A DNA stretch of 64,000 nucleotides. Origin: Isurus oxyrinchus (Eukaryota). The notes beneath the pieces were generated by a model. That model saw only the letters and a list, made by a program, of their open reading frames with translations, made no database searches and was not told the DNA's origin. Position numbers and translations under genes: made by a program. The stretch covers positions 6,014,001-6,078,000 of the forward strand of contig JANJGN010000034.1 in NCBI GenBank assembly GCA_026770705.1. Reading direction: 5' to 3'. Every line of letters begins with the position of its first letter. The stretch's first letter is position 1. Below are positions 5,785 through 63,891 of the stretch, piece by piece.

Positions 5785-5811
5785 AGCTCTATGATCTACA
5801 GAAAAAGTGCA
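5785..5811 (+). CDS. Microexon 1, unit 1 (27 nt; ELYDLQKKC)
   Basis: tttccttag|AGCTCT...AAGTGCA|gtaagt; homologues at 35331 and 62347. Confidence 0.88.
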
Positions 5812-7280
5812 GTAAGTATTGCCTACTGCGGTGATTTATTATTTATTTTCGCAGAGTTATTTCGACTACCTGAGCATGCAATTTTGCGCTGGCCTCCCCA
5901 TGTAATTCAGGAATCGTGGGCTAAAAATCCCCCAAGAACCATCTCCGAAACAATAGTACAAAGTTTGACTTTCGGAAGTTCTTTCATTGAGTTCAAGATG
6001 TTACTCTTTTTACAGTCAGACAGAGGTCAATGCTTTGCGAAAAGTTGAAATCCTCTCCGGTAAAGTCCGCAGTTCCTTCATCGAATCAGCTTCTGCAATT
6101 TTTATATTTACTTTAAATCACCAACAGTTGATTTTGGAAAGCTGAAGTACAGCTGTTTTGAAGATGCAGGGGTTGAGTGGCAAGATGAGGGATTCCTCAC
6201 CGACCTCCGATGATGCACTCAGTCAATTTGCAGTTTGTTTATACTGGACGTCATTGACCTGCAGAGATTTTAGAACACTACTCTAAAAGCAAGCTCGTCC
6301 ATTTTGAATGTCATCTCTGTGTTGGCCCTCGCTGGACAAGCATAGAAAGGGATCTTCAACTTGGCGGGGTAAATTGGGAGGTGGACATTTTACTTTACTT
6401 AGCTTACATTTGCATAACGGTTTAAGAAGAAAAGCCTATCATATAAAGAAGATTCCAGCTGGTTTCATATATCCCACCTGAGCTTTTGCAAGGATGTCCT
6501 GAATGTACACTTCTGGTAACATAAATAGAGTAATAGAGCCATCGGAGAAAATGCAATAAGCATTAAAATTCCTTTCAGAACTGAGACAGTTTTGAAGTTC
6601 TTAAGAGTCGGCATAGTGAATATTATTCCACTCATGGCAGCAGAGGAGAAGGGGGCGTAAACGGTCAATTAATATGATAGTCCGCAATCGATCAAATATA
6701 GGTTAGAAAAGTGCACCTTCACTTATTGAGTGGGTCAAACATAAATGTTATCACTGTAGGCAACAGTCGCGCCTGATAACATACATAGTTGTAAAGGGAG
6801 AATGACGCACAGAAACATATAAACTGAATTATTCGTAGGGTTAAATAGAGACTGGCAGAAGTAGGCCCATCTGATTCCTTAACACTGTTATCGTGGATTT
6901 GAGCTGACCATCCTGCTTATTTTTTGTTATTAATTCTATGTAACTCTAGAAAGCATATATTGCAGAAATGTTATCCCTTTTAGCACCTTTTTGTCACTCC
7001 CCTCACTCTGAGACCACACCCCCCCACCATCACCCTACGCCTTGAACACTAACGTGGTCCTGGACTGAAAACTACTCCAGGCCAGAGAGTGGAATGCCAA
7101 TTGTTCCTTGCTTTAAAATCCTGCACAAAAATGCCCATTACATTGACTGTCATAACTCACCCGGCGCGATTGAAATCAACTTCTCCTAATGAATATAACA
7201 ACTCAGCCAAAGTTTGCACTCCAGTAGCGTTATGTGTCACTAACAGGCCGGCGGTTGAACTATTCCTGTAACTTTTGCAG

Positions 7281-7307
7281 AAGCTGATCTCGACCAAAAA
7301 GATGAGG
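7281..7307 (+). CDS. Microexon 2, unit 1 (27 nt; KADLDQKDE)
   Basis: cttttgcag|AAGCTG...GATGAGG|gtaatg; same peptide in all three units. Confidence 0.88.
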
Positions 7308-7993
7308 GTAATGTACAACATCACACGTGCAGTACTTTGTTTCCATTGCACTTTATACTGGTTGCATCTAAGGGAAATAGTTGAATTTAATGACCGCGGA
7401 CACAGTGTCCAGAATACTCACGTGTTGCCTGGGAGGTGGTTGCAACCTAGTTCTGGATCAGAGGCCTCCATATAAAACGTCAGCTTAAAGTATGAGTGAA
7501 CGTTTACATGCCTATACTGCCGAGTCGAAGGTTGAAACTTTCAGGTGAAATATTAAACTTCAATTGTTCAACTTTCCTCTGACATTGCCATAAGCAGCGA
7601 AAGGCCAAAAATATCCGGAAAATAAAATAACACAAAAGGAATTGGCCCCCTGTTGTCTAAGCACTCTATATATCTGAAGAATCAGTGCAAGTAGATTATC
7701 GATATAATATCACTTTCAGGTTTTTCGGAGCTTGCTCTGTGTAAAATAACTCTTGCATTTTCTGTATTATTAGCTTGAATGTATTTCCAAATGTGGGCCA
7801 TGTGATGTTGCATGTCCTGAGAATGTGACGGGCACCACAACAATTTTCACACACACCTAAAATGAAACAAGAATGGTTGATGTGCCAGCATGCCAACAGT
7901 AATGAAAACGTAATTAATGCGAAGTCTGAGGCTAAATATTGATATTTCTTTGCTGAAATGAAATTCCACTTGTTTATTTTACAAAAATGCAAG

Positions 7994-8020
7994 AATTCGC
8001 CAAGAAAACTGGAGAATTAG
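7994..8020 (+). CDS. Microexon 3, unit 1 (27 nt EFAKKTGEL; possibly ancestrally 36 nt from 7985, EMQEFAKKTGEL)
   Basis: Strong donor TTAG|gtgagt; the only AG acceptor is gcaag at 7993; the upstream position reads ttttacaa rather than ttttacag. Confidence 0.65.
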   Translation, partial: NSPRKLEN

Positions 8021-8964
8021 GTGAGTAAAGCAGTAAAGAATATGTGCAAATCTTGCTTGTTTATGGGGTTCATACTGAAATTTTGTTTGCTTTCCTCATG
8101 GCAAAGGGGATGTTTAGATAAACGTTAATAGGAAATCTAGTCGAACGTTAAGTAATTTCATGTCACTGCCAATGTCAGAGAAAGGGCCAGCGGTGCCAAT
8201 CATGGTGATGTCCAGTAGAAGTCCGATTAACCCGATGTGAGATCAGATATTTTCAACTCGTGTATGGTGAGAACAAGTATTAGTCCCAGTCGGTTTGTGT
8301 GGGAGGTCGGTTTTGAGGTTGGGTGGAGAAGGGGGTGTTGTATATCGATAAGCTTAGTTGTGTTCGATGGGGAGTGCCTCTCATCTAAGTCAGAAATAAA
8401 TTGGATCTGGTGAGGATCGATCGGGCTTTGCTGAAATGAAACCTGTGTGTGGTCAGCTCTTTCTGGGGACAAGTTCTATTTTGATGACTATCTCCTGAGA
8501 TGTGCGCATGGCTAAAAAAAGGCCCTCCTTTTTGCCTATCTTAACTGCCTTTGAAAAGGCCGTCTTGCAATACATAACCACACACAATTACAGAAGATTG
8601 TTTCTCTGAACTGAAACGGCAGAATTGATTTACTGTCCTGTTATGGAGAGGAGATTTCAATTCCAGATTAATTAATTGAAATTAAATTCTACAAACTGCC
8701 ATGCTTGAACTCATGTCTCAGCGCATTGCTTGAAGGAGACTCAAAAGTCAGCAGACACAGTTTCAAAATAATGCATCTTCCATTTAAGACGAAGTTTTTC
8801 CTTCACTGATTCGTTAATACTGCAAGTCAATACCGCAGTGGACAGTGTAAGCAGTGGCATTGAATGATTTATCAGACCGGAGCTAAACCTACGAGACAAT
8901 TAATTCTCATGGGGATGATAACGATGTAAGAAAAAACAAAGAAAGGCTGAGGTTGAGAATCAGA

Positions 8965-9065
8965 CACGAAACAGATAATGCTGATAATACATAACTAGTC
9001 TGGCAGCATCTGTGGAGAGAGAAAGGGGAGTTAACTTTTGGAGTCCATACGGCTCATCTTCACAG
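8965..9065 (+). repeat. Short dispersed repeat (related relic at ~27340-27430; unit 2 copies ~38565-38655 and ~56525-56615)
   Basis: tggcagcatctgtggagagagaaa...gttaac motif, which I recall as abundant in elasmobranch genomes. Confidence 0.5.
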
Positions 9066-9571
9066 CTTTTTATGGAGTTAATTCAGGAAAATGGATTTAA
9101 GATAAAACCAGATTAGCTATATTATTGTGGAATGAGTGGAAGGTTAGAGGGGCCAAATGGACTAAATCTGCTATATTGTCTTATGTTTTTACATTGTTAA
9201 GGGGCGACATCACTAATTGCCCTTTGTCAAAAATGCACATAGACAAAGTCTGTACCAGCTCCAATTTGATTCAGAATTATGAATACCTAGTTGAAATCAA
9301 AGAATCTCGCTTATCTAGACTGCTGAAAACACTGCTTTCTTTTTGGGAAAAAAAGCACAGTAATTGAAGGGTAAAGACCTAAATTTTTACTTTTGTTAGG
9401 ATATCAATAACAGGAGTGACGAGTCAATGATCAACAGTAAATGGAAGAGAGAGCTTTAAACTTTGCTATGGAATGTCTGATAGCAAATTACAGATCACTT
9501 TTTTCTATGCTCAGTGACAGTGCACATCCTATAATTTTTCTACTGCTTATATTTCCTTCACGGATTCACAG

Positions 9572-9586
9572 AAAATGTAAAGAAGG
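9572..9586 (+). CDS. Microexon 4, unit 1 (15 nt; ENVKK)
   Basis: attcacag|AAAATGTAAAGAAGG|gtaagt; homologue at 39177. Confidence 0.82.
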
Positions 9587-10196
9587 GTAAGTATACATAT
9601 GTTACAGAAACGCTACTTTAAAGCAAGATAAATAGGTTGCCCTAAAAATTCATCGCTGGTGGAATTGGCCCAATATCCCGTCGAGTATCTTGCCTGATGT
9701 CGAATATAGTGTTATTTCTCTTTTTCACGTCCTTCTGTGACATCCCCCGACCCATTTGTGTAACCTTCAACAGCTCAAAAATCATTTTAAATCCACCTAA
9801 TTTGCTTCCTTAATTTCCGATTTAGTACTTCCCCAGTCCCCACCTCAACAAGTTTAAGACACTCCCTGAAAACTGTGCCACAGAGTGATCAGCCTTGATA
9901 CCTTTCATAATATCTCACAACCTGTTCGTTGAGTTTCTGTTACTATTTGTTCCATACTGATGTATGTTTCTGCCTTCTTCATTGTTGTCTGTTTAGTAAA
10001 AGCATATTAACCTCTTCAGCCAAATCTGAGGAAGGCTGATATCGCATGAAGGTCCCCAGGAGACTGTGGAGATGAATGAACATGAGCCAGGATGTGAACT
10101 CTTCCAAAAGCGTAACTTTTTAAGAGCCCCTGAAAGGCTGATAAAACACACATATGATGGACTTAAAGACTAACTTTGTTTTTCTCCGCCTTGCAG

Positions 10197-10232
10197 AACT
10201 GGGCACCTGCCAAGATACAGTAAAAGATTTAG
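10197..10232 (+). CDS. Microexon 5, unit 1 (36 nt; ELGTCQDTVKDL)
   Basis: tttctccgccttgcag|AACTGG...GATTTAG|gtgagc; homologue at 39801. Confidence 0.9.
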
Positions 10233-11188
10233 GTGAGCCAATCAGTTTTGCTGACTGCTGAATTTCCAGGCCGTTTGCTTTACTCTGAAATCAAGCAAAC
10301 CTCCAAGTGTTTCTAAAGCACAACGGACAAAGAAAGATCCTGGAGCATTAATGCGATTTTTTTTTAAAGACGATGAAATTTCAAGCAATGACAGATTTGT
10401 TCTGCATGGGGAGCTGAACTGGCAGTCAAAGTATTTTAGTGCAAAGCTCGGTCAGATGCTTGGCAAGTGACTTTATGGTTTGTCCATTGTTCAGAATGAT
10501 TCACATGGATTAGATAAAAGATCAAACAATGCCTGCATTGCAGCAGCGGTTACAGGCATTCAATGGACAGACTGATGTAGGGTGACGTGTGTATTCAGTT
10601 TCACTGACTAAAATGGAATTAAATATTTGGGGTGTGTATATAATCTCCCCTCTCTACGAAATCGCACATTTTGCCTGGCTACCCAAAATTGAAATTCATC
10701 ATGTCGAGCTTGGTTAACGTGAATGTTTTACCCATATGGTACCGATTCAGCACTCCCCTTCACATTTCGCAATTTTAATTTTTGTTGGCTTCAAGTTTAG
10801 AAAAACAAGACCTGGACGTTTTTCTCTGAAAGGACGATCAAAGGAACGATTATATGGCCTTGGCAACGATGCTTCCTTTACGTGAACTCCATGCTACATG
10901 GTGTGCATTTCCCCCCGATATTTCCACTGTGAGTTAAAGAGGAAAACTTCACTATTCGTTCCTGTTTGCGGAGGTAGTAAGTTGCCAGCTAGCAGTGAAT
11001 AAATGGCTGTTGCCAACTTTCCATGAGCTGTTCCATACAATTTTCACGGTGTTCCACGTGCTCAAGGAGAGTTATGTTTGCCCTGCACAGTCGGCCACAT
11101 GCAGAATAGCTTGATTTTCACTGAAAACATTTCCGTGGTAGGTCATGCATTCGTTCATTTTGTTATTTATTCTTGATGTGTTTCACAG

Positions 11189-11203
11189 AAAAATTAAGAA
11201 GAG
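11189..11203 (+). CDS. Microexon 6, unit 1 (15 nt; EKLRR)
   Basis: gtttcacag|AAAAATTAAGAAGAG|gtaagt; homologue at 40785. Confidence 0.85.
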
Positions 11204-11559
11204 GTAAGTGGAAATATTCTCTAGCACCTGACCGTCTAACGTGGTCAAATAAAAGACGAGGAAAGATGGATTTGCAGTGATTACAAATTCCAATTTAAAG
11301 TAACTTATAAATTGTCATTATTATATCTAAATACCTCTGTGGCCTCGCCCTTCCATATAGCCTTGAGAATCCTCTGGCCTTACAACTGGCTGCAAGTTTT
11401 GTCTTCCCACCAAGCTGGCCACTTTCTGATCGCGCTGTACATTCACCTTACCAATGGCGATTTATGGCTTCTACAATATGTCCCAAGGCTCAAAAGCAAA
11501 TTTCCTAAAACTTGCACCTCAAACTCTCCTTCCTCCGTTAACAGTCACATATTTCCTGG

Positions 11560-12700
11560 GCGTTTTCCAAAGTCCACACCTCCTCATCACCCCGGATTCT
11601 GGTTAATAATTAAAATTTCGTTAAAAACATGGTGATTTGCAATGAGGTTCCTTACGCCCTGTGGCTCTTTGGTTATCGAGAATGTCTGCTAGGAACCTTA
11701 GAAATACTCAGCAGACGATAAGCTGGCTTACATGTCCTCAGAACAAACAGGGGAATACGTGGCATCTTGAAGAACTCAATGACTCTTCTGGTGAACAAAG
11801 GCTGCATCAGGACCTAACCTCCAAACGTTTTAGTTTTCTGCCATTTGTCCGAGCTGTCGTTCTCAACAGGCACGCCTGGAAGATGCTGTGCAACACTTTA
11901 TCAATCCAAAACTTTTGCCCGCACGGGCATCTTTCTTTCCGAGCAAATCTACCATGACATCAGGTGTCCAGCGAGTGGCGTAGGGAACACTGTTGTGTTG
12001 TATCAAAACAATCACTTGAATTATGCATGGACTGCATTTGGTCAATTGAGAAAGCGAGCATTCGAAGGTCGCAAAACCAAAACTGTCAGGAAGCTCATGA
12101 TTTGTTTTTTGTGCCTGATACCCACCTTACTCTGCAAGGCCGAAGCTGCAAGATGGAAAATGTACAGGAGGCACCACAAGTCACTTGGGTCATACCGTTA
12201 AAAGGGGCTGTGAAAGAAATTGCATATTAGTGGGAGGGCAGACAGGCAGACATTGTCAGCTGTCAGATTTCAGACTTCCAAAGCAGGTATTTTTCTCCAA
12301 GAGTAGCGAGGACAGACGCACTTGAGGAGTGCAGAGGATGCTCTTAAGGGATGTGCTGAAAAGCAATATGAAGAAAATGAATTTTTCACATCGACATTTC
12401 AGTGGACACCGTTTACCGATGAAACCAAATGGCACCAGTCCCTACAGCAAGGACCCCAGCACTTTCAAAACAAACAACTATAAAATGATTCGGAAGAAAC
12501 AGGAGAGGCCAAAGGAAAATGGCATGTTTCGAATTAATGATACAGGACCTGGCACCCATCAAGGCATGAGTGCATAAAGTCTGCATGTCCCGAATCTGCC
12601 TCATCAGCCATTTCTGGCTCATGAAAGACAATTGTCCTCGCAAGTGAAGCCTAGCCAGTAATAACATTGTCTGCAAGCAATTAATCACGTGACCCAATGT
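11560..12700 (+). mobile_element. Degenerate RTE-clade-like LINE RT fragment
   Basis: AFGQLRKRAFEGRKTKTVRKLM...IPTLLCKAEA..W.MYRRH.KSL resembles the post-RT region of RTE LINEs (AFGRLRKRVF...TKLMVY...PTLLYGAETWT.YRRH). Confidence 0.75.
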
Positions 12701-12949
12701 GACTACATGTTGCATCAGCTCCCGTTTCATCGAAACTGTTAGCGTGGAAAAAACTTTGGTGTTTTCCTTGGTTAAGTCACTTGATGCATGCTGATTGCCC
12801 TTTGCTGTAAACAGTCTACTTTCAATCTCTACCAGCAAAATTTTTGCCGACAATTCTGAGGAAACAGTTGCTCGCAGGATGACTACTTGTGGGTTCTTAC
12901 AGTACAGTTAACCATGTTGGAGAAATTCATATTTCCCGAAGAGAAATTA

Positions 12950-13930
12950 AACATTTGTAACATAATCAAAGAATTTAGCTTGTCCTAGATTGGTTACAGC
13001 ACTGAAAGAGGCCATCGGGATCTTCGCGTCGGAGGCGGATCTCTGGGTGATTATCTCGGCTGTTCTCCTGGTCCAGATCTTCACCTGCAATGCATGCAAC
13101 TTGCTTGCTATTCAAATAATTACTCAGCTCCCTATCAAAGGCCACGATTGTCCCTTCGCCGAGCTCATTATTAGACATTGCATTTAAGAACCTCATGATA
13201 CGCAGCACATTTATTTTTCCCCATGTCCCGTTTGGTTCTCTTCAGTAGACGTTAAATGAATGTCTGCCATTTCTTGACCATTCCAGATGGGAACAGTCTA
13301 GGGCTGCCTAACATTTCCAGGCCCCGTCGTGAATTTCAGATGCCCCGTCAAATCTCCTTTCAATCATTTTTTTTATATGTTTGTACAACCGCTCTAAATT
13401 CTCCAATCTTTCCTCCAAGAAGAAACAATCGTCTCTGGAAACATTGCCATGAAGACATTCTCTATCCTCTTTAACGACTTAACTTCACCCTTAACTATGA
13501 TGTCTAAAATATGAAACAATACCCTAGCTGAAGTTGAACTACTGGTTAAAACCACTAGTTTTACCATAACTTCCTTTCTTTGGTTGCCTATTCGTCTATT
13601 TATAAAGCCGAGGATTTCATCCGGTTAAGTGACAACATTTTCAATCTGCCCTGCATCTTGCAACCATTTGTCCTCTTATACTCCCAAAGCCCCATCAGTA
13701 GTTTCAATCCCCTTTGCAATGCTATCACAAGTTGTTCATTACGTCCTCCTCCCAAAATGAATCACTTCATGCCTCTCTCTATGATTTTCACCTGAAATAG
13801 TTCCTCCAATTCCACGAGTCCAACTGCGTCCGTTTGATGTATTTCACCATCTTCCTTGCAATGCATAGCCCAGTAAAATCTGAAAACCGAAAATCTGAAA
13901 GTGTTGCCCTCGACACTAACGTTTGTGACC
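12950..13930 (-). mobile_element. Decayed CR1-type LINE fragments
   Basis: EGTIVAFDRELSNYL resembles the CR1 ORF2 end; upstream atgcctctctct...ccaaaatgaatcacttca is typical of reverse CR1 RT. Confidence 0.55.
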
Positions 13931-14022
13931 TTGATGCTTCCCATGTGGATAGATTGGAAGGGGGATACAGCGTTTTGCTTTAATGACATTTAAGTGTGGA
14001 TCATCCATTTTATGAATTACAG

Positions 14023-14058
14023 AGCTAAGCGACTGTCAACAAGCAGTAAAAGATCTAG
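14023..14058 (+). CDS. Microexon 7, unit 1 (36 nt; ELSDCQQAVKDL)
   Basis: aattacag|AGCTAA...GATCTAG|gtgagc; paralogous to exon 5; homologue at 43565. Confidence 0.88.
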
Positions 14059-14474
14059 GTGAGCAAAATATTCCTGGCATCGCTTTCGATAACATGCCTT
14101 ATTATTTTGAACCATTAAGCAAATATGTTTACATATGTTAAAAAGTGAAGTGGTCAATTCAGACACTCGTTGTTTGGCGATAGGCCCTCATTCCCTACTT
14201 GATTTCAATAAAAGAAAATACAGGGCAGAAAGCAAAACAGGCTGACTATCCGATATCAGGCAGGACTAATTTCCGATGCTCCATGCGTCATGTTTATTGG
14301 CTCTTTGTGTCACAACTCTTGCGCAATCCTGCACACTAACGGAATGTTGAATATTGTTAACTTTTTCGATTTGGTATCAGGTTGGCAAAGTGTTCTTACC
14401 AAAAACTAACTTCCCCCACTCGTCAAGAATGTTGTTTAATGTTAGAATTTTTTTTATCATATAATCCCGAGCAG

Positions 14475-14501
14475 AAGAAAAACTCAACGCAAAAGAAAGA
14501 G
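14475..14501 (+). CDS. Microexon 8, unit 1 (27 nt; EEKLNAKER)
   Basis: gagcag|AAGAAA...GAAAGAG|gtatgt; one difference from the 44023 copy. Confidence 0.82.
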
Positions 14502-16121
14502 GTATGTGATCTGACATCTTTCTTCAAAAAGCCTGAGATTGACAATGGCTGACTGCTTCTTTAAATGATTTGTTTTGTTTTCTTATGAGTGTTTAATGTT
14601 TTTTTTTTTTTACTAAGCAGATTGCTAGATTGTACCCTAAGGGTTGCCAGCAGAAGAATCCTATACGTTGGTGCCTTAGTTTCTAGATACCAAGGCAAAT
14701 TTTGGAAGCTGTGTCACACAAAGTTGGAAAAATATAAATAGCATGTGAACTAATTAACTGAATAAGGAGTTCACTTAATGCTCCTTAAACAAGGTAGTGG
14801 TAACAACAAAGTAGTCGCTAGCACAGTGAATTTGGAAATAAAACGTATGTGGTGGTTAAGAATGACAGGTTTGCTAATAGAGTTTATGGAAGAGTTCTTG
14901 GTGTCACAACTTTCAGTCAAAGGCTCCACGTTCAAGTCTCACTTAAGGACTTGCTGGCTGTTGAAGCTGTCTTCGTAAGGTGGCCAGCTGTATTGGTTAC
15001 CGACCTGCAAAAACCTTCCAATGCACTTGGCGGCTGGTGCTAAGAATTGGAGAGATGCTGGCCAGCCAGACTGCAGAAAGCAACATCAAATGACTGTCCT
15101 ACTTTGCCAAGCATAATCATGGCTATATCCTGGAAATCCATGATCACCAACACCCTCTGAATGCAAGTTACCTGAAAACTAGGAATGAAATACCATATGT
15201 GGTAACTTTTTCTGGTGGAGGATAGGCTTAGACATGGGACACTTGATTGGACGATGAGATATATTCCTCTAATTTATATGGGTCGAGCTACCTTCTAGGT
15301 ATCGAATTCTATAGATCTTAATATTTTTTGAAATGCAACTCACTCCAAATTGGCAAGGGAAAAAGACAGAGCGCCGTCTATAGTTAATCAGTGACGAACC
15401 TAACCAGGGAGAAGCACTATGTATCTACTTAAATAATGTAATTGAATAATCGTTAAAGGGAAGAACTTGGCAAAGTCCCACCGAAAAATAAAATCTGCAA
15501 AAGCATTTATTCCACAGTTGTGCCAGTTAAGTTGCCAAAGGTACCCCCGTGCATGTTACTAATTGAGACTGACTGCGCCGTTAAAGATGAAATTAACAAA
15601 ATGTCTTATTTTTTATGCATGTATAATATGCAAGTAAAATATCTGAAAGCATGCCATGCAACTATTGGGAGACCGTCTCGGGGAGATTCAATGTGATGTC
15701 TTTCTATGTTATTGCACAATCTGCACTCAAGTAAGATTATCGATGCCAGTCTTTCGCTTACTGCGACTGCAAAAACCGCACTTTGCTCTTGCTTAAAATG
15801 CATTATGAAATGGTGGCCCAAATTAGACCTCGTATTTTTTTATGAATATGACACTAGGATTAGCTGAGGCAAATAATCTCTCATTATTTAGGTGTAGGTT
15901 AAGTAGGCGCTTCAGGAGAAAGTGAGCGGGAGTTCATATCAGTAATATGAGATGCAGTTTGTCGAAGTATGGAGCATGTGGAAGGACATAATCCACTTTG
16001 TCGAATAGATTGACCTGTACTGTAAATTATGCATAGTAACTTGGGACGGTGGGTGGGAGGGAATGGGGGAAACGTGCTGAAATTGAAATAATGATGAAAC
16101 TCTCGCATCTCACCATTTTAG

Positions 16122-16157
16122 AGATTCTAACGTGCCAAGAGTCTTTAAAGCATTCAG
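16122..16157 (+). CDS. Microexon 9, unit 1 (36 nt; EILTCQESLKHS)
   Basis: ccattttag|AGATTC...CATTCAG|gtggga; same E-x-x-x-CQ pattern as exons 5 and 7; homologue at 45670. Confidence 0.83.
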
Positions 16158-16358
16158 GTGGGAAATAAATGTGGTATTTGTGTAAAATAGCCGCTGCACA
16201 AAATATTCCTGCAATTCCTAGCCCACATGTAGAATACAGAAAACCGATCAGTAATTTTTAATGTACAGATTTAGATTTTGCCTGCATCATATAATTGCCC
16301 AGCATAGAAAGAGGGCTACTCTCCACCTTGCCTGTACCTGCTATATGAACGGGGTTTA

Positions 16359-16368
<10 letters not shown>

Positions 16369-16402
<34 letters not shown>
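16369..16402. repeat. (TC)n microsatellite
   Basis: tctctctctctctctctctctttctctctctctc; shorter in unit 2 (~45918-45931). Confidence 0.9.
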
Positions 16403-17178
16403 ATTATCTGTGTTCCAGAAATCGTTTCACACAACCTTCCAAACGCTTGTTCTGCAGAATAAGTTGTTGCTCCCGGCCAACTCCTTCCACCCCATACTAA
16501 GATTTGTCTATTAATCAGCTTAAATCTGTGTTTCTTTGTTGCTGGTCGTCCTGGACGCGGGAACCATTTATTGTTATTTACTTTCCTAAGATTGATGATG
16601 TCAACAAATTGGGCGTAATTATCATAGGGTCCATTAAAATTTTCTCTTGGTCATAAGAATCTCAGCTCCCCTCTGCGGTCTATATATGTGATGTCCCTGG
16701 TGCTGTGGATTCAATCTTCCCTGTGCTCCCAACACGATTTGGGAATCATTGCAATGCGAGGTGCGTCGAATTTGAATACAATATCCTAAGTGGCATATTT
16801 CAAACAACAATCATTGAGAAGCTGCAATGAGTGTCGATTTACTGGTGAGATACAAATCTTCAGCAGTGAGTACTCCGTCAATTATTGATTCCGACTAATG
16901 CATGGTTCCATTACTTGAGCTGGGCATCTGGCTGGACGTGGAATGGACGGCCGTTGCCATAGCGTCAATTTCACGCTACTGTCCAGGATCATTATTTGCC
17001 CCAATATGTACCATCATCTACATTATTGTGTTATGTGCAGAGTTATCCACGCAGCAGCATGCCTTGACATAGCAACATTTAAAAATTTAAATCCAACTGC
17101 AAACTTTTGCCTTTTCATATAAAACGTTTACTGTTTGAATGATTCCACAATCTTCCTGTTAACGTCATGCCTTGACAG

Positions 17179-17205
17179 AAACAAAGCTGAAAGGCAAAGA
17201 AAAAG
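17179..17205 (+). CDS. Microexon 10, unit 1 (27 nt; ETKLKGKEK)
   Basis: ccttgacag|AAACAA...GAAAAAG|gtagcc; identical in unit 2. Confidence 0.85.
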
Positions 17206-18428
17206 GTAGCCAGTTTAAGGATTCGCTGTTTTAAGAACTCAGATATTAACGTGTTAATATCTATGCCCCGTTTCTTTCATGATTAATTTCTCTCAAATAG
17301 CATTTAGCATTATTAATTGGAAGATCGGTTGACTTTGGTAATGGGCTATATGTGGAGAAAATTTTACAACTTGAGAGGTGTCAGCCAAAATTGTGAGCCA
17401 GTAAGACAGGAGTGTAACATTAATAGAAGATAACACTCAGGAGGAAAGTATTGATCCAGAAAACGAATTGAATGGGGAATTCGCTACTGCATGATTCTTT
17501 CTTATCCAGAATTTCGCTATATTTTTAAGGCCGAGGTCAGTTATCCATCGAGATCCCACGAAAGTTCAATCGACTTTATTATCACGAAGTAAACGTCGTG
17601 TCATCCCCACGAAAATTTTAGTTCAGCACTGTCAACTCAAGATTAATAGCTCCTAGGCATTTTTAAGCAAGTTTACCTCGTGCTTGCAGTCTGGATTAAT
17701 TACTTTTGCTTCCAAAAAATGACGATCCCTTCCTTTGCAGACATGTTCGTGTTTGTGTCCTGACTTCAGAAGGATACATGTTGATCTCTGAATATCCAGA
17801 CTGTGTTCCCTCTGGTGCTTTGCATTCGTTTCAGGGGCCATATGTGATTGAAACTGCTCGGCGCACTTCTCTGTCAGCCAATGAGCTGAACGGCGTGCAA
17901 GATTTAAGAAATGCATTTAGCAAACGCTGTACAGTTCATGCACTAAATAACAAATCAAACTGATGATTCATAGCAGAATATTAAAGCGGAGTCTCTCCAA
18001 TGTGCATACAAAAGCTATTTAAACAACATCAACACGCACAAAAACATTTTGCCTAATTAACCAAAGGCGCTACGAATTACACCAAAACATTTCTAGGTTA
18101 ACACGGATTTTACGGTCTCCAACAAAGAAAATTCAGGAATGAAACAATGCCAATATCTCTTGCAAAATGCACAAGTTCGTCACCAATAAAATGCAGTTGG
18201 TGGAGGAGAGTCAAATATTTCCAGCTGCATTCCTCTATTCAAGCTCAGTCTCAAACAGCAGTGTGGTTTCCAGACACGATTGTTAAGAGGTTTAGCGGGC
18301 CAGTTTGATTGCTGTCGGGGAATGCCGGATACAAAAAGGAGCTCTTCTGTCATCTGGACGAGGAAATGTAACTGATAACCTTGACAATTACATGATTCTT
18401 TTAAACCAGTTGCTTCTTTCTGTCTTAG

Positions 18429-18455
18429 AATTGAATGACATTCAGCAGAAATGCA
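18429..18455 (+). CDS. Microexon 11, unit 1 (27 nt; ELNDIQQKC)
   Basis: tctttctgtcttag|AATTGA...AATGCA|gtgagt; paralogous to exon 1. Confidence 0.88.
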
Positions 18456-18999
18456 GTGAGTATTCGATGAGCCAGCAGCCATCAAGGTGTCCATTTCCCG
18501 ATTGAATATATAGCCTGTGCTGCGGAAAGAACCTGTGGTACAAAATATAATCGTGTGAAGGCATTAAAGCACATCCCCAAGGCATGAAGAGAAAATGTCT
18601 GAAAGGAAATTGCGGTTTTACCTTCTTGCCTAAAGCTGCACCAAATGTTTTATCCTCGCAGATTCCAACTTTTCAGCTTTGACTCAGTAAACAGAACTTG
18701 TGGTCAGAAGTTTGCAAATTGAAGTCCAGAGATAGAAGTTGAACGCAGGCGCAGATGCAGACACGGCAGTGCAGCCCTCAGGCAGCAATGTATTTTAGGA
18801 AGCGCCATGCAGCCGTTTAGTCCATAAAACAAGCCAAGGTCTGCCCACAAACTTGGATGTAAATGACCCAATGCCACATTTGACAGAAATGAAGGGACGT
18901 TTTCAACCGATGTCCTGGTAAATACTTACCCGTTAATTAAACTTCACATAACAATGGTGTTTCGATGGTCTTGGGGAGCCTGGTGAGTCGGGAGGGACA

Positions 19000-20650
19000 A
19001 GTATCTTTGGCAAAACAGTTCATTCAGAGTGGTCATCATGTCACCAGCTTTATGTTGGCAGATGGATCGGACGGACAATTGACAGATGATGTCTTGAGCA
19101 TAAAATTGCGATCACATCATTTTGTTGGGAAGGACGAGGTGAGGCAATTCAAGAGAACGTGTCAAAATCAAAATGGGTTTCAAGGTATTTACCCCTGGAT
19201 GTCAATGTGCACAAATTACTCAGGGTGACAAGGGACGTTGAATGGGCGTTTAAAACAGCAAAACCTACATTTAATGAAGTGTGTCATATAGCACTAAACA
19301 TGTAGGTTACAATAAATGTATACAATATTGGGGGGGCCTCAGCTAGAGAATTGTTTCCAATTCTGGACAACATTCTCCAGGAAAATGTGGAGGCATTATA
19401 AGGTGTGCAAAATTAATTTTTAAAATTATTTCCATGGTAGAGGAGTTCCACTTACGTGGGTATATGGACAAGTGTTCTTCACCTTGTTGATCAGAATATT
19501 AAGCAACTATCTGATAGAGGTGAAGATAATCATTAGGATCCAGGAGAAACTGAACAGGGGAGAGTTGCTCCGTTTGCAGGAATGGCCGGAAATCATTAGA
19601 AAACGAAGTAAGGTAATTCACATCATAAACTTTCGTGCCAGGAGGGAGGCATTTTCTTTTCCAGCGAGTGCTTAGCATTAGGATTACATTGCTAACGTTG
19701 TTTTGGAAGAATGTAAATATGTGTTCAAGAAAGTATTAAATAATTATATCAAGAAGAGAAATACTTTGGAGGAGTGTTACTTGGAACAGCGGGACAGATC
19801 GATGAAATAAAATTAATAGAGCGATCCGGCACAGGCTCAATGTGTTGGATGGTCTCTCTCTCTATCTGTCTGGATCCCTCGCTCCCTCTCTCCCTCTCTC
19901 CCTCTCTATATGTTATACAGCTGATTAGATAGAAAAGAGACAGATATATTGATATATATATAGATAGGTTGATAAGTAGATAGGTAGATATTTGGACAGA
20001 TACAAAGATAGATAGCAATTGGGCCTGACAATATAGGACAATTCTTTAACAGTTTCAAATGACACATGGGCATGGTTGTGCAGCAAATAAACATGTTGAT
20101 AGCAAGCGACTGCAGCAAGGCATAAATAGTCGAGCAGCATAGGATTCAAGTGGCGGATCGGAATTAATGCACATTTCTCTGAAGTGATGCATTTTGGCAA
20201 AACCGTTAGAGGAGGCCAAATACCCTTATTGAAACGATTTGTTAGTGTGCAACGGAAAAGATGAGGAGCTTATTTTTTTTAAGTTGTCTTGAAATATTAT
20301 AAATGTACTTAGCTAGTTATTTGGATTATTGGGCTTACCATGTGGAGGTATTCAGCACAAAAGTATAAATTTGTGCACAATCCTTTGACACTTTGGTTAT
20401 GGGGCAGTTAATGTTGGTGCATCTGGTTATCAACATATATTCGGAAGGAGCGACTGCTCATTAAAGGGTTTCTGAAGAACATTGGCAGAATGGTTCCATG
20501 GAGAATTGAAATTAACGACCTTGAAGATTGGTGGACGAACGTTTGTTATCCTTTGAGCATAGAAGGCAGAGAGGAGATCTATAAGTTAATGTCAAGTTTA
20601 GGTAAAGGAGAAAAAGTTATCCCGTGCTGATACGCTTAAGATACAGAGAT
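19000..20650 (+). mobile_element. Decayed CR1-type LINE 3' fragments
   Basis: cctcagctagagaattgtttccaattctgg (PQLEYCVQFW-like), LIEV.KII and gaagtgatgcattttgg (EVMHFG) motifs. Confidence 0.6.
19850..20015. repeat. Degenerate (TC)n then (TAGA)n/(TA)n low-complexity tract
   Basis: ctctctctccctctctc followed by tagatag/gatagata arrays. Confidence 0.8.
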
Positions 20651-20899
20651 GAGGAGGACACAGTTTTCCGCTTTGTGCACTGGGCGATTCGAAATGTCGG
20701 TCATTTGCCTTTGTAAGCAGAACTTACATGCCATGGACAAAAGCAACTATATATTGAAAAAAAACATAGAATGGAGGAGGAGGACCTTTGTTAATTAGAG
20801 CCCATGTTCTGTAACTCACCATCTAGCAAGTTGATAAAATATTACTCACTCAGTAATCTAAAAATGAATGTAAACTGGCTCATGGACTGATTAAATCGG

Positions 20900-23790
20900 C
20901 AGGCAGACAGTGAGAGTTTGGTAAAGCAAGATTGAGTGCTTCGCTCTGGAAAATGCCGCATGGGTTCTACCGGCCATAAGGGATCTGTCGCTCCCGACAT
21001 GCGATCCCAAACCCACCACGTGGCTGTTACTTGCCATCAGAAATCGTCACTCACTTGCATCAACAATGCAACAGGTAATTGGATATGGGCCAAAATTGGA
21101 GAGACAAATCACGATCTAACTAATCACCGGGTAAGAAAATGACAAATTCAGTGCTTTCCACCTGCTAAGATAGCTTTACCAACTGGGGGATGGTTCCAAC
21201 AGTGGGAGAGATATCCAAAAGACCAATCAAACAAAAGTCATATTTATAATCAGGGATTCACAGTTCCTTACAAAGGCATGAAAGGGCCAGTAGTGGACTG
21301 GGCCAGCCTAGATGGCAGCGCTATAGAGTGTGTTTGGAACTGCAATAGGGACACTTAACACTGACTCCGGACCCAATGAAGTCACATGACATCAAGCCAA
21401 ATATGGGCAAGGAAAACTCCAGCTGATTAACTCGTACCACAATCCACACCCATCCTTGCTGCTGATGAATCAATACTTTTCCATGTTAAACGTCACTTGG
21501 AGGAGCATTGAGGGCGGCAATGGCGGACAAATCACTTCAATCACCAGCACCAAAAATGGCTTCACAGCACCAATGAAGACTGAGCGAGACGAGTATGAAG
21601 GGACATAGGTGCTAGGATGGGATTGTGGCTACTGGTGATGGAGCAAATGAGCGGGGGAACAATACCTGTCTCCCCCTCACTCTCAGGAACCTGCCTGCTG
21701 CAGGGGTGTCTGCCCATGAAAGTATAGGTAGCAGTCACCACCGCACAATCATTGTGGAGACATTGTGTATACCATGCAATGTGTGTTGCCGTACAACCAC
21801 CATGCCAAAGAGTATAAATTAGGAACAGAACAAGTATATCAAGCCGAGTTAGCCACGAGGCTATGTCGTCCATCCGCAGAAGCAGAACTGTACTCAATCA
21901 AAATATTTAACATCATGTCCCAACTTAACCGACACTTTTCAATTACCTGCCTACCTCGGTATCCAGCTTATTTCAATGAAGAGTGCGAGGAGGCATTCCA
22001 GAAGCAGCACAAGTCATGCCTAAAAACGAAGGGCAACCGGGTGAAGTGGAATAGCAGATTCACTTGCGTGCCAGACAGCATAAGCAGCATTTGGTAGACA
22101 GAGCTAGGCCATTGTAGAAAAAATGGAGCAGATCAAAGATCTGCAGCGCTGTCACGTCCAGTTGTTAATTGTGGTGGGCACTTAAATAATACAATGGAAA
22201 AAGATCCACAAATGTCTCCATGCTTCTTGATGATGGAGTGCCAAGCATCGGGGCAAAATATAAGGCTCAAACATTTGCAATACGTGTCTAGTAGGCGACC
22301 CATGTCGTCCCCCTCCAGAGATACCCGGCATTGCAGATGCCTTACTTCAGGTTATTCGATTCTTCCAACGTGATATCATGAAATGGCTGCAGGAACTGGA
22401 TGTTGCAAAGTCTGGGTGCACTGAAATATTGCAGCCATTATAGTGAAGACATGTTCAAGGTCAATTTGGCGCCCTTAGCCAGACTGTTCCAGTATGGCTA
22501 CAATACTGATATCTACCTCGCGGTGTAGTCACTCGCCCAGGTGTGTCTTGTGCACACAAAGCAGGGCAAATCCAAACAAGCCAATTATCGTCCCCTCAGT
22601 ATACTACCAATCATCAGTGAGGTGAGGAAAGCGTCAGGAACTACTATCACACGGCACTTCTTCAGCAATCACAGGCCAATTGCTCTGTTTGAGTTCCGCC
22701 TGTGTCCCTCAGTTCCTGACCTCATCACCACAACTCCAGTGTTCAGGTGCGACTGTTTGTCCTTGACATCAAGGTAGAAATTGGCCGATTCATCCGTCAA
22801 GGTACCCAAGCGAAATTGGAGTCAATGGGATTCACGGGGAGAACTTTGCGTTGGTGGACATCATACCTAGCAGGAAGAAAGTTTGTTGTCGGTGTTGGAG
22901 ATCAATGACCAATAGTTAAAGGGAATTACTGCAGGAATTCCTCAGGAAAAAGTTCCAGACCCAATCATTCTCAGCTGCTTTTTCAAGGGATTCCCTTCTG
23001 TCATAAGTTCAGAAGCCGGGGTAGTTGCTGATGACCTCACAAATTACAGCACAATTCATGACGCCTTACATAAGGAAGCAGGTCAATTTCCAAATGCAAC
23101 AAGACAAGTGCCAATCAATGACCACATTTCTCAAGACATTTAAAACCATCACCATATGACAATCAATGGCAATGTCTACAAGAGCTGATCAGGGGCTGGG
23201 AACTGTGCAAATTGGAACTCATCTCCTGAAGCCCGAAAGCCTGTCAACAATCTACAAGACACAATTCATTTTCTTGATTGAATACTCCTCTGCTGCCTGG
23301 CTGCGATTAGCTCCAACAACACTCAAAAATCTTGACAACACACATGGCAAAACAGAGGACTTGATTTGCATCCCATCCAAACACTTTCAGTCCATCCACG
23401 GTCGATGGACATTGGCATCAGTGAATAACATCTGTAAAATATACTGCAGGGACTCAACAAGGCTCCTTTGGCAGCACCTTCCAAACCAATGTTCGCTGCC
23501 GTCTAGAAGCACAAGGACAGCAGGTATCTGGGAACTACAGCACTTTAAATTTCCTAGACAAGCCACTCATCATCCTGCCTTGAAATATATTGTGATTCCT
23601 TCACTGTCGTAGAATCAAAATGGTCCAAATCCCTCGCTAACAGCACCGTTGAAGGACCTAATTTAGATGGACTGTAGCCCTTCAAGAAAGCAGTGACCAA
23701 ATCCTTCTCAAGGACAATGACAGATGGGCAGTAAATGATGTTCTCACCAGCGACGGCCAGGTCACATGAATTAATAAAGAAAAACAAAAT
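20900..23790 (+). mobile_element. Degenerate CR1-clade LINE ORF2 (APE endonuclease + RT) with 3' UTR
   Basis: LRNLPAAGVSAHESIGSSHHRTIIVET (EN end), KSKQANYRPLSILPIISEV, GIPQ/VADD-like RT motifs, PESLSTIYKTQ...EYSSAAW; 3' end cacatgaattaataaag. Confidence 0.85.
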
Positions 23791-25389: not shown

Positions 25390-25416
25390 GAGGAGATCTT
25401 TGGGACAAAGATTCAG
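25390..25416 (+). CDS. Microexon 12, unit 1 (27 nt; RGDLWDKDS)
   Basis: ttcctctcttgcag|GAGGAG...GATTCAG|gtaaac; paralogous to exon 2. Confidence 0.85.
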
Positions 25417-25454
25417 GTAAACAACATGTTTTATTCTGCACTGCCCTTGTCATA

Positions 25455-25870
25455 CCAGCATTGGCTCAGTCTGTAACAATCTAAATATGAGCTTGGATCT
25501 CGTGGTTTCAAATGTAGCTCGAAATCCTGATCACTAAGACTTGACTGACACTCTTGGTCACCAATAATGAAAGAGTTCCGACCTGCCGGGCAGGTTATCT
25601 CTAAGGCGAGATGTTAATGGAAGACAAAATTTCCCCACTCACCAAGGCGTATTCCGATATACATTTAAGGGTTGCCTCCAATGTAATAGTATGACTTACA
25701 CTTAATCAACAGTGGTATATACAAAAATCATCTTTTCTGTTCAATTTATATTTGTGGGAATTGCTGTATCATTTCCTACATTACAGCAAGAACTACAATT
25801 CTCGCGAGTCCAATATAGGAGGAAAATTTCATTGAGATATTCTGAATTCATGGATGAAATGAGAAATCAA
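25455..25870 (+). mobile_element. tRNA-derived SINE relic (DeuSINE/SacSINE1-like)
   Basis: A-box-like tggctcagtctgta, B-box-like ggtttcaaat, gactgacactc core, gagatgttaa, and L2-like tail tttcctacattacagcaagaactaca; family assignment from recalled consensus. Confidence 0.55.
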
Positions 25871-26017
25871 GGCCCTTCATTTTTCAGTTTCTGTTGGTAT
25901 GCTAATGAGTCTGTTTGAGCTTAATCTGTTCCGACAGCAGTGAATGCTGTAATGACATTTTTTTTTTAGAAAACCATATCAAAGGGATTGATAAATTTTT
26001 CGTATGCTCATTTTCAG

Positions 26018-54595: not shown

Positions 54596-54634
54596 GTAAA
54601 CAACATATGTATTCAGCACTGCCCTTCTCGTACT

Positions 54635-60075: not shown

Positions 60076-62346
60076 CAAACCTCCATATTTACATCGTTCC
60101 GAATTCTCATATTTGTATCCCTCTATGAAATCTCCACTCAACCGTCTCTTCTTAAAGTAAAATATACGAGGTACTGAAATCTACATATTCAGTCCCTCAT
60201 CCCTCATTCTTGTAAACGTTTTCTAAAATCTCGTTAAAGACTTCGGATCTTTCAAAATTATGGGTCGTTGCTTTGACCATGCAGTTCGTGCAGCTAAGTT
60301 ATTGAAAACCCCAGAGGAAAAGTTATAACAACTGTCATAACCTATAATTGTGAGTGATATGTTTAACATGCAACTTTAAATTCAGGAAAAATACCCGTTG
60401 TTCTCGAGAGGTTTTACATTCAGCTAAATGAAACCTAATTAATTTGCCTAAGTTAAATTTATGCTCGAGGCTCCAAATTACTACGATCATAACTTTTAAC
60501 ATATTCCCAAACTAATACCCGTTAAGGGAACATGAGCTCAAAGAATTGGCCAGGCAGAATATTTTACGTTGCAAAATAGAGGCTATTTTTGTGTTGGTGT
60601 TTGTGCAGACAGTTGGAGCCTTTCAACTGCTTTTGATCGCACACTGCTTCTGCTCTACACATTCAAAGCTGCTCAAATTATTCCTAGCATTGTTCATTGC
60701 ATGCACTTTATCATTGAATCACAAGCCTCTTTGAACTCAAACTTTTAACAATAAATCAACTTTCATAGAAAGAATTTTATTAGGTATGTAAAGATAATGC
60801 TAGTATCTGCTGTGTAGGTGGTATTTTTCACCTCACTTCTTGAATACAATATCAAAGAATGCAAATAAAGGCTATTTATCTTACATAGAAAAATAGTATA
60901 CATCAAAGAGTCCAGACTGGCTGGCTTTAATCCAATTAAGACACACCCAAAAACTAACCCTCTATTATAAAATATTTCTGTTTTCCGTAATAATGTAGAT
61001 ATTAATAACTTCGTTGCAGTCCCATTATTGGACACAATGCTCAAGTTGAGGCAGAACCTATGTTTTATAATTATTCATTGCAACATCCCTGATTTTTTTG
61101 TCAACGCCTCTCTTTCTTAAATTCAGGATCTGATTAGTTTCCTTAAAAAATCATCAACAAGTCTAGCTGTTTAAGCGATATGTTCACATATACCCCTAAC
61201 TCGCTCTGACCTTTTGGTTTGTTACACTTTGGATTTTATTACATCCCATTGCTCTACTGAACAAAATGTGTCAGCTCATGCCTTTTTGTTCTGCAATAGA
61301 TTTCATCTGCAAAAATCCTCTCCCTTCCAGGAGTTGTCCTCTGGCGACCAAGTGGAGCTGAATAACACAAATCTAAAAAAAAAGACAAACATAACTGAAC
61401 GGAACTCATATAAAAAAATAGTTAAATGCATGCCCAGTAATATGAAATAGTACAAGGCAGCTTACGGCCATCAATCGTGGGGTGGAATCAGGCACAGTCA
61501 GGATTACTGAGGCATGCCTACAGGGCAACCTGGCCTGCAATTTAACCTTGTAGTGTCTGCCGTATGTAGAAAGGATAGAGTGGGGCCAAATGCTATCTGT
61601 ATTAGCTGTGCCTTTTCGAGATTACATTCTGTTTTCAGCAATCGCTAAAAGATTCATCGCTTTGACGAAGTTCCCAAAAACAAAACAATCACGAGACTTA
61701 GTTTCTGCAGGGATGTAATTTCAGGAGCTGAACCAAGAAATACATTTGGGAATCTGGCAAAAAAAATTATCTTTACCTAAGTGAATAGCACAGATGCATT
61801 CAAGAGTAAGCTAGGTAAATATATTGGTGAGAAGATGATAGAGGCTTTCAGTAATAAATTTACATGAGGAAATATAGAAAGAATTTCAAGTGAAGCTTTA
61901 GCGCTTGATGGGCTGAAATATCTCCTTCTGTGATATATATCCTCAGCATAACTGCAGTTAATTAAATAACCTAATCGATACTTAAACACGGCCGAATAAT
62001 CTACTACTGTTTCTATTTTAATGTATATAACTGCGTAGAGATAGTTAACTAAATTCATGACTGAAACAGCAGCCGAGTAAGCAAAAAATGTTATCTCTGC
62101 AATTAGTTACAATGATTGGCAAATTGATCTGTCATTTGAATACAACCAGATGAACTGACATAACTCTGCTCATTCCAACTGGACTGGTGGGAGAATTGTA
62201 AAATTCATTGCCCATCCAAGTTGTCATTGCGGCGTTAATTTATGGACCCTTTTCTGCACAAAGCCCGATGTAATAATTTCATTTTTATCCTATTAAACAT
62301 TGTGTGTCATTGGACAAAAATGTGTTCATACTTTAATTTTCCTTAG

Positions 62347-62373
62347 AACTCTATGACCTGCAGCAAAAGTGCA
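62347..62373 (+). CDS. Microexon 1, unit 3 (27 nt; ELYDLQQKC)
   Basis: ttttccttag|AACTCT...AAGTGCA|gtaagt. Confidence 0.88.
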
Positions 62374-63864
62374 GTAAGTATTAGCTACTGCGCTGATTTA
62401 CTATTTTTTTCTGCTAAGATATTTCGACTTCCTGAGCATGTATGTTTGTGCTGGTCTCCCGTTGTAATTCAGGAATCGTGGGCTAAAAATCCCCCAAGTA
62501 GCATCTCCGAAACAATTTTACAAAGTTTCACATTCGGAAGTTCTTGCATTAAGTTCAAGAAGTTACTCAGTTTGCAGTCCGACATAGTTCAATGCTTTGC
62601 CAAAAGTTGAAATCTTCTCCATGCAAATCCGCTGTTACTTCATGGAAACAGCTTCTGCAATTGAATCGTTTATTGTAAATCATTAAGAGATTTTCTGAGA
62701 GACATGAAACATGATGTGATTTTGACGCCCCTCGTCCTTTAAATTGCAATGCTGAAGTACAGTTATTTTGCAGATACAGGGGTAGACTGGCAAGTCGCGG
62801 GATTCGTCAGCTGCCTCCCACAATGCACTCGCTCAATTTGCAGTTTATTTATACTCGACGTGATTGACACTGCAGAGATTTTAGAACACGACCCTACCAA
62901 AAAACGCGTCCCATTTAAATGTCGCCTCTGTGCTGGCCGTGGTTGGACAAGAATAGAAAGTGATCTGCAACTTGGTGGGGTAAATTTAGAGACGGACATT
63001 TTACATTTCTAGGCTTACATTTGCATAGCTGTATACAGATCGTAGAAAGTAGCTTCCTGCTGGTTTCATTTATCCCACCTGAACTTTTGCTTGGATATCT
63101 TGAATGTACAATTCTGACAACAAAAATAGAGTAATAGAGCCATCGGATAAAATGCAATAAGCATTAAAAGTCCTATCAGAACTGAGAAGGTTTTGAAGTT
63201 CTTAACAGTCGGCATAGTGAGTAGTATTACACTCATGACAGCGGGTGGGAAGGTGTCGTAAACTGACAATTAATATGATAGTCCGTAACAGATCAAGAAT
63301 GGGTTACATAAATGCAACTTCACTTATTGAGTGGCTCAAACATGAATTTTCTCACTGCAGGGAACAGTCGCGCCTGATAACATATACACATGTAAAGGGA
63401 GAAAGACGCACAGAAACATAAAAACCGAATTATTCATTGGGTAATTAGAGACTGGCAGAAGGAGTCTCTTCTGATTCCTTAACACTGATATCGTGGACTT
63501 GAGCTGACAGTCCTGCTTATTTAGTGTTACTAATTCTACGTAAATCTAGAACGCATCAATTGAAGAAATGTTATCCCTTTTAGCACCTTTTTGTTACTCA
63601 CACTCACTGCGATACCACCCCTTCTTACCCCAGCACACCTCTCTAAATTCAAAACTCTTCCTGGCCGGACAGGGGAGTGCCAATTGGTCCTTGCTTGATG
63701 GCCCTGCCCAAAAGTACGCATTACATGGACTGTCATAACTTGCCCTGCCGCGATTGAAATAATCTACTACTAATGAATATAACAACTCAGCCACAGTATG
63801 CACTCTAGTAGCGTCATGTGTCAATAAAAGGCCGGCGGGTGAACTATTCCTGTTACTCTTGCAG

Positions 63865-63891
63865 AAGCTGATCTCGACCAAAAAGATGAGG
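63865..63891 (+). CDS. Microexon 2, unit 3 (27 nt; KADLDQKDE)
   Basis: ctcttgcag|AAGCTG...GATGAGG|gtaaag; identical to the unit 1 exon. Confidence 0.88.

Follow-up and report, generated by a model that had tools for sequence, protein, structure and literature searches.

Microexon-like segments in Isurus oxyrinchus are likely internal exons of a predicted 1.54-Mb gene encoding a long coiled coil with a terminal B30.2 domain

A stretch of 64,000 nucleotides (nt) of Isurus oxyrinchus DNA, hereafter the window, was analysed together with the DNA around it; it occupies positions 6014001-6078000 of contig JANJGN010000034.1 (C34), a 19.9-Mb contig in a 4.98-Gb genome. The window contains 30 microexon-like segments. 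They are probably exons from the interior of a single predicted gene of 1.54 Mb (gene A), which would have about 400 phase-1 microexons and a B30.2 exon at its end. From the predicted product and its closest relatives, we favour, at a probability of roughly 60%, a secreted oligomeric rod that would hold B30.2 heads at a distance, be stabilised by core cysteines, and have its length set by exon number.

Segments were detected by a splice-site scan and by mapping each segment between tandem copies. Between positions 5785 and 63891 exactly 30 segments bounded by AG and GT were recovered (18 of 27 nt, 8 of 36 nt and 4 of 15 nt), reproducing the set of 15/27/36-nt, phase 1-1 segments reported in a first-pass annotation of this DNA. 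Joined, they make 834 nt and 277 full codons in phase 1 with no stop, in agreement with the proposed open frame of about 278 residues. The coiled-coil spacing described earlier was likewise borne out, as the hydrophobic period of the joined peptide was 3.515 with a power of 7.95, compared with at most 1.97 in 300 shuffles. The window proved to be a tandem duplication, a property that the annotation had left unstated, with 2.1 copies of a 27-29.5 kb unit. Each unit carries 14 segments and 390 nt of coding sequence, the same density as the earlier estimate of about 390 nt per 29 kb. The features of the window (window positions) are:

5085..34630: tandem unit copy, 29.5 kb, boundary arbitrary; next copy 34631-61646
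5785..5811, plus strand: microexon 1 of the unit, 27 nt, phase 1-1
7281..7307, plus strand: microexon 2, 27 nt
7994..8020, plus strand: microexon 3, 27 nt; a start at 7985 would make it 36 nt
9572..9586, plus strand: microexon 4, 15 nt
10197..10232, plus strand: microexon 5, 36 nt
11189..11203, plus strand: microexon 6, 15 nt
14023..14058, plus strand: microexon 7, 36 nt
14475..14501, plus strand: microexon 8, 27 nt
16122..16157, plus strand: microexon 9, 36 nt
17179..17205, plus strand: microexon 10, 27 nt
18429..18455, plus strand: microexon 11, 27 nt
25390..25416, plus strand: microexon 12, 27 nt
26018..26053, plus strand: microexon 13, 36 nt
27887..27913, plus strand: microexon 14, 27 nt
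35331-35357, 36876-36902, 37585-37611, 39177-39191, 39801-39836, 40785-40799, 43565-43600, plus strand: second full copy, microexons 1-7
44023-44049, 45670-45705, 46702-46728, 47950-47976, 54569-54595, 55194-55229, 57047-57073, plus strand: second full copy, microexons 8-14
62347-62373, 63865-63891, plus strand: third copy, first two microexons

Ten copies of the unit were found, in an array that begins 130 kb ahead of the window start and ends 150 kb past it. They were 82-85% alike in all pairs, in a star-like pattern that argues for a single old burst; an assembly artefact as the source of the copies was ruled out, since no pair exceeded 85%. AG, GT, length and open frame were intact in 140/140 exon copies, although the real test comprises 126 copies, because the reference copy was picked for having splice sites. 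Other AG and GT dinucleotides in the same alignments were kept at 0.68 and 0.62, respectively, and insertions and deletions occurred at 8.7 per kb. Strong AG-GT segments over the 1.54 Mb were biased to the plus strand (plus/minus counts of 121/14 at 27 nt, 115/8 at 36 nt, 47/18 at 21 nt and 37/14 at 15 nt). Most other lengths were about equal between strands, with 58 nt as the largest plus-strand exception (30 vs 18). The phase-1 frame was open in 117/121 strong 27-nt and 110/115 strong 36-nt segments. The reading that the gene is dead, or that splice motifs are matched by chance, would be in keeping with the modest ratio of nonsynonymous to synonymous change (dN/dS) and the one predicted TAA junction considered below. 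It would leave unexplained why every one of the 140 copies is intact after about 17% neutral divergence, why the B30.2 exon is intact, why the segments favour one strand, and why the locus is kept, at about 95% identity, in the DNA of a related species; we regard it as exceedingly improbable.

The acceptors of microexon 3 (7994-8020 and 37585-37611) scored poorly (-6.3 and -4.3, respectively). At the acceptor expected for a 36-nt exon all ten copies read AA, and an AG 9 nt downstream was kept in 10/10, as CAG or TAG in three of them; the frame is kept with either acceptor. It is likely that the acceptor moved 9 nt downstream once the ancestral AG turned AA; alternatively, the exon may use a conserved non-canonical AA acceptor (window 7985-8020, all 10 copies). 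The introns also contain stretches that we interpret as retroelement-like remnants, copied along with the unit (window 23160-23609, plus strand; 12416-12907, minus strand; and about 4300-5300, plus strand).

In an outward walk, the exon types of the window continued for 1.15 Mb upstream and 0.32 Mb downstream. Gene A is thus predicted to span C34:4.859-6.396 Mb, or 1,536,883 bases, with the whole window inside it on the plus strand. A self-trained scorer returned 397 exon calls on the plus strand and 12 decoys on the minus strand; the two strictest thresholds gave 280/1 and 345/3, and the loosest 439/21. This error figure is optimistic, because the decoys doubled as the negative training set. 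The scorer recovered 129 of the 140 mapped exons, and addition of the mapped exons gave 408 microexons; its list misses some exons, of 15, 21 and 24 nt, that lie close to the 3' end and are conserved in a downstream paralog, gene B. The predicted product has about 4,170 residues, of which about 3,960 form the rod, encoded by 12.5 kb of coding sequence (0.8% of the gene). Lys makes up 20% of the rod, Leu and Glu 15% each and Asp 10%; Cys occurs 152 times and Pro 5 times. Hydrophobic residues occupy positions 2, 5, 9 and (in 44%) 12 of the 36-nt exons and position 4 of the 27-nt exons; the commonest exon pair, 36+27 nt, equals three heptads, and 67 of the 152 cysteines fall at position 5 of 36-nt exons. 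This extension supports the earlier proposal that the window holds part of a rod encoded by a very large cartilaginous-fish gene that is poorly annotated.

The ends of gene A are marked by the following exons:

C34:4859457-4859567, plus strand: 5' exon, 111 nt, phase 1-1, with a short hydrophobic start; the most 5' exon common to gene A and paralog C
C34:6395161-6395187, plus strand: tryptophan exon, 27 nt
C34:6395819-6396339, plus strand: terminal B30.2/SPRY exon with the stop codon, phase 1; PF00622, expectation value (E) 1.8e-13

The array is bounded by single copies of the B30.2 exon and of the 111-nt exon. The latter and the next two microexons are shared between gene A and paralog C; when the 111-nt and first 36-nt exons were used as queries, no copies beyond those of A and C came up, and the 5' ends of paralogs D, E and B were not found with them. 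These boundaries bear on whether the exons, if real, are ever joined in full. Internal promoters, several small genes or heavy skipping could instead yield shorter rods from the 1.5-Mb region, as the six gaps of more than 20 kb between called exons, the TAA junction, cassette isoforms in relatives and the 175-1697 residues of annotated relatives would allow. With just one B30.2 exon and one 111-nt exon for the whole array, an acceptor and a donor on all called exons, and a stop-avoiding start after three of the four exons that end in T, although 316 of the 408 exons begin AA, AG or GA, we consider such a set of short products quite unlikely.

At its 3' end gene A resembles the butyrophilins. 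BTN3A1 was the best solved-structure relative of its B30.2 domain (E 7e-20), and the spacing of 12 from the tryptophan to the B30.2 domain equals that in 3/3 butyrophilin or ERMAP proteins compared. No Pfam match to immunoglobulin (Ig), RING or B-box domains was found in 343 open frames (102 + 112 + 129) around the 5' ends, one of these scans omitting 8 of 137 frames, those inside gene C. Local profiles over about 2 Mb gave no match for V-type Ig (IgV) or for C-type Ig (IgC)/transmembrane exons (best E 1 or worse for IgV/IgC) and a best E of 0.31 for RING/B-box, while a B30.2 control profile recovered 4/4 domains over the same DNA. The product predicted from the 111-nt exon on has no transmembrane segment (best 19-residue mean, 0.86). 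As these 2 Mb yielded no Ig, transmembrane or RING/B-box exon, assignment of the gene to the butyrophilin, BG, TRIM or lectin genes is not supported. The first-pass annotation had suggested a BG/butyrophilin-like or lectin-like receptor and an extension both ways for terminal domains. The extension yielded the B30.2/SPRY exon and no IgV/IgC, transmembrane or lectin domain; the butyrophilin-type 3' end (tryptophan exon, spacing and B30.2) therefore stands, the Ig and transmembrane exons of a receptor are not supported, and neither is the lectin proposal, since the array closes with a SPRY exon and stop instead of a C-type lectin domain.

Five related B30.2 exons lie on the contig:

C34 2.709 Mb, minus strand: B30.2 exon of E
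C34 3.474 Mb, minus strand: B30.2 exon of D
C34 4.817 Mb, plus strand: B30.2 exon of C; gene about 4.005-4.817 Mb
C34 6.396 Mb, plus strand: B30.2 exon of A
C34 7.497 Mb, plus strand: B30.2 exon of B; gene 6,455,840-7,496,959

A minus-strand microexon array, taken as that of D, reaches 3.949 Mb and is head to head with C; the two lie within 56 kb of each other (C34:3.949-4.005 Mb), possibly with a common promoter region. Gene B is a copy of gene A from 5.091 Mb onward and begins at an internal phase-1 exon; its first exon is at C34:6,459,146. In 120 kb sampled, 24 of its 26 mapped exons were intact; its B30.2 exon is open, with 10 silent and 13 changed codons, and in its own array one part of the unit occurs six times and another part once. 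No copies of the 5' exons of gene A were found ahead of gene B, which could be an alternative 3' half, a gene with a new start, or recently dead. Between A and B, at C34:6.416 Mb, lies a broken fragment of a 7-transmembrane receptor (PF00001; E 8.5e-5, which does not reach the cut-off). A cluster of V-type Ig exons was seen at C34:15.7-17.6 Mb and 7.605 Mb, with roughly 30-34% identity to the IgV of a chimaera butyrophilin. The genome's strongest butyrophilin-type IgV exons and most of its other B30.2 exons are on another contig, C21, where well over 100 B30.2 exons at 82-118 Mb and butyrophilin-type IgV exons at 95-114 Mb form a large TRIM/butyrophilin expansion.

Relatives of gene A were compared in a B30.2-only tree of 30 rows, hand-picked from match lists and without an outgroup. 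Genes A-D and nine related proteins, eight named from sharks, rays and chimaera and one unnamed, were split from 17 butyrophilins, TRIMs and others with branch support of 99.9/100. The same split was obtained with 35 rows; branching within the clade was weak. Members of the family include:

XP_042192744, chimaera: 'nuclear-pore anchor-like', 1697 residues
XP_055510696, skate: 'TRIM69-like', 295 residues
XP_038668997 and XP_038672308, catshark: 'TRIM39-like'
XP_069775385, Narcine: 'A33-like'
XP_042191567 (chimaera), XP_078422387 (basking shark) and GCC29436 (bamboo shark): further members

These gene models share the B30.2 clade and, in the longer ones, a coiled coil ahead of B30.2, and SPRY is the sole Pfam match in the two with listed matches. 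They differ from gene A in length, being far below its predicted 4,170 residues. In catshark XP_038668997, segments that match the last microexons of genes A and D lie directly before B30.2, in the same order and phase: the 24- and 30-nt exons of A (score 51, reached in 0/2000 shuffles) and, by eye, the 21- and 27-nt exons of D. The N-terminus of this catshark model looks like read-through of intron or repeat. RefSeq isoforms of the relatives, which we infer to rest on RNA, differed by blocks that keep the frame (6, 9, 9 and 9 residues) in 4/8 pairs, one block being the tryptophan segment. At E 1e-20, no longer protein with the gene A B30.2 was found among proteins of up to 2,000 residues, a limit that excludes a full-length model. 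Atlas searches with two homologues returned generic SPRY clusters only, and in mostly open-access literature, supplements aside, we found neither a publication on this cartilaginous-fish family of coiled coil plus B30.2 nor a described function for its members.

Among indexed RNA runs, none carried the gene A B30.2 exon, a result with no bearing on expression. Four runs matching this exon behaved as DNA of a related species, with introns evenly covered and classes about 95% and about 90% alike. Four RNA-like runs compared with 4.7 kb at the 3' end of paralog D gave four short intronic matches, which likewise have no bearing on expression.

The tree and the gene order also bear on a further reading, in which gene A is an ordinary receptor of the butyrophilin or BG type and has its Ig and transmembrane exons farther upstream. 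Its phase-1 heptad exons, its tryptophan exon and BTN3A1 as best solved relative would all be expected of such a receptor. However, the B30.2 exon of C lies 42 kb upstream of gene A and limits it on that side, and C is in turn limited by the array of D, on the opposite strand and no more than 56 kb away; that upstream DNA has no Ig or transmembrane match, and the tree sets the family apart from butyrophilins. This reading is largely refuted, and we hold it to be very improbable.

According to the accessible sections of PMC4046983 and PMC8813856, butyrophilins combine Ig domains, few heptads and B30.2, and the accessible part of PMC12841164 places them in cartilaginous fishes. Gene A shares with BTN3A1 and ERMAP small heptad exons, a tryptophan segment 12 residues before B30.2 and a terminal B30.2 exon. 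It differs in having about 400 heptad exons instead of few, in lacking any IgV, IgC or transmembrane exon that we could find, in the separate clade of its B30.2, and in its distance from the strongest butyrophilin-type IgV exons, which are on another contig. Chicken BG genes, as described in the available text of PMC4046983, have 13-36 exons of 21 or 24 nt; like gene A, they encode a long heptad region in small symmetric exons whose number varies by paralog, and form a tandem multigene cluster. In contrast to gene A, BG proteins have a single IgV, a transmembrane segment and no B30.2, and gene A uses mainly 27/36-nt exons, more than ten times as many. TRIM proteins differ in that gene A has no RING or B-box match, and CD23-type C-type lectin receptors in that gene A ends in B30.2. 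The feature is real, and is an extreme-size version of the butyrophilin/BG heptad-exon design.

The closest relatives suggest a secreted rod over a cytoplasmic tail. Skate XP_055510696 and chimaera XP_042192744 have a hydrophobic start (11-residue mean 2.9) and no later membrane segment, and the chimaera protein has furin-like basic sites, as called with the furin motif. The skate and chimaera starts include Ala-Val-Leu, and the 111-nt exon begins Val-Met/Ile-Leu after a likely Ala. Sole XP_058499580 and killifish XP_017276390, both teleost models, likewise combine a predicted signal peptide, a coiled coil of about 1,000 residues and B30.2. They differ in having few cysteines; their B30.2 is outside the cartilaginous-fish clade, and they are therefore likely a parallel invention. 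A bowfin model has type II membrane topology with a coiled coil and B30.2. Extracellular B30.2 may thus have arisen more than once in fishes, to judge from these predicted proteins.

In the secreted-rod model, all of the approximately 400 microexons would be spliced into one mRNA, and a short first exon together with the start of the 111-nt exon would form a signal peptide. Outside the cell, cysteines at core positions would lock the chains by disulfides. The rod could be as long as about 590 nm (at a coiled-coil rise of 0.1485 nm per residue), and the B30.2 heads grouped at its tip would use avidity to bind a ligand, either a protein or a surface; their role would most likely be a barrier, immune or matrix one, in a specialised tissue. 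All exons have lengths divisible by 3 and are in phase 1, and a 27-nt plus a 36-nt exon make three heptads, so that blocks can be duplicated, lost or skipped with the frame kept. Rod length would thus be an evolving trait, changed by block duplication, loss and skipping. The 14-exon unit is present in ten copies in A and a differently bounded unit in six copies in the next paralog, and family members are between about 300 and about 4,200 residues long, the top value being the gene A prediction.

The same gene could instead place its rod and B30.2 in the cytoplasm, either as an Ig-less butyrophilin with an uncleaved anchor or as a soluble cytoskeletal or trafficking tether resembling an enterophilin or a BG-derived zipper protein. 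Enterophilins are mammalian cytosolic proteins of about 65 kDa with an extended heptad region and B30.2 and with neither Ig nor RING; the likeness to gene A is one of general architecture. They are mentioned in the accessible part of PMC13749957. A cytoplasmic rod would match the location of B30.2 in butyrophilins and TRIMs, the basic cluster that follows the chimaera hydrophobic segment, as in N-out anchors, the absence of a hydrophobic start from several relatives, and the unenriched sequons; BG tails, moreover, act on actin-myosin (PMC4046983, accessible sections). Hydrophobic segments of about 11-13 residues are, however, short for a membrane anchor, acidic residues follow the segment in skate, and furin-like sites and ordered core cysteines suit a secreted protein. 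We judge a cytoplasmic orientation unlikely.

Several observations count against the secreted giant rod that we favour. B30.2 domains are normally cytoplasmic, and a hydrophobic start is present in just 2/6 family models; the two Narcine isoforms, the second catshark protein and the short chimaera protein are without one. The skate and gene A N-termini match weakly (111/3000 shuffles reach the score), and the chimaera N-terminus has no match to the 111-nt exon (323/2000 shuffles). Candidates for the first coding exon are many, and none is homologous between A and C; no significant match came from hydrophobic phase-1 donors, tblastx, an A-C DNA comparison or searches with the N-termini of the chimaera and skate proteins. 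The product shows no excess of N-glycosylation sequons (10 vs 13 expected), and a dN/dS of 0.59 across exon copies indicates modest constraint only. Splicing of the 30 segments is itself predicted from DNA, and the exon count comes from the self-trained scorer, which at a stricter threshold gives 345, fewer than in titin. Finally, the junction from C34:5685491 to 5685852 reads TAA, the only internal stop in the joined 408-exon frame, unless a weak-donor exon is skipped. The 27-nt weak-donor segment that gives this TAA (C34:5,685,491-5,686,557) may be a dead or poison exon.

Titin, with 363, has the most exons according to the available part of PMC3575840, and giantin is the longest coiled coil cited in the accessible sections of PMC5082667 (3,056 residues in human, 3,238 in zebrafish). 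Both are unrelated to gene A in sequence; its predicted rod of about 3,960 residues and exon count of about 400 would exceed them. More tentatively, and with clear doubt, gene A may set the record among vertebrate proteins both for exon number and for coiled-coil length; its product would be a secreted rod about 0.6 micrometres long, locked by disulfides and with a B30.2 tip, its length tuned by microexon duplication and skipping. In this bolder form, gene B (6.456-7.497 Mb) would be spliced from the 5' end of A, so that the two would form one transcription unit of 2.6 Mb in which either of two heads could be used.

If spliced as predicted, gene A would have more exons than titin and a longer coiled coil than giantin, within a five-gene cluster over about 4.8 Mb that would be nearly invisible to annotation, with 0.8% coding sequence and relatives filed as 'TRIM39-like' fragments. 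If the proposed model is true, a normally cytoplasmic recognition domain would have been placed outside the cell, and rod length would be evolving in parallel in two paralogs through block duplication of symmetric exons. The gene would then be a natural test of the faithful splicing of hundreds of consecutive exons of 15-36 nt, and the family an ancient relative of the butyrophilin/BG heptad-exon design.

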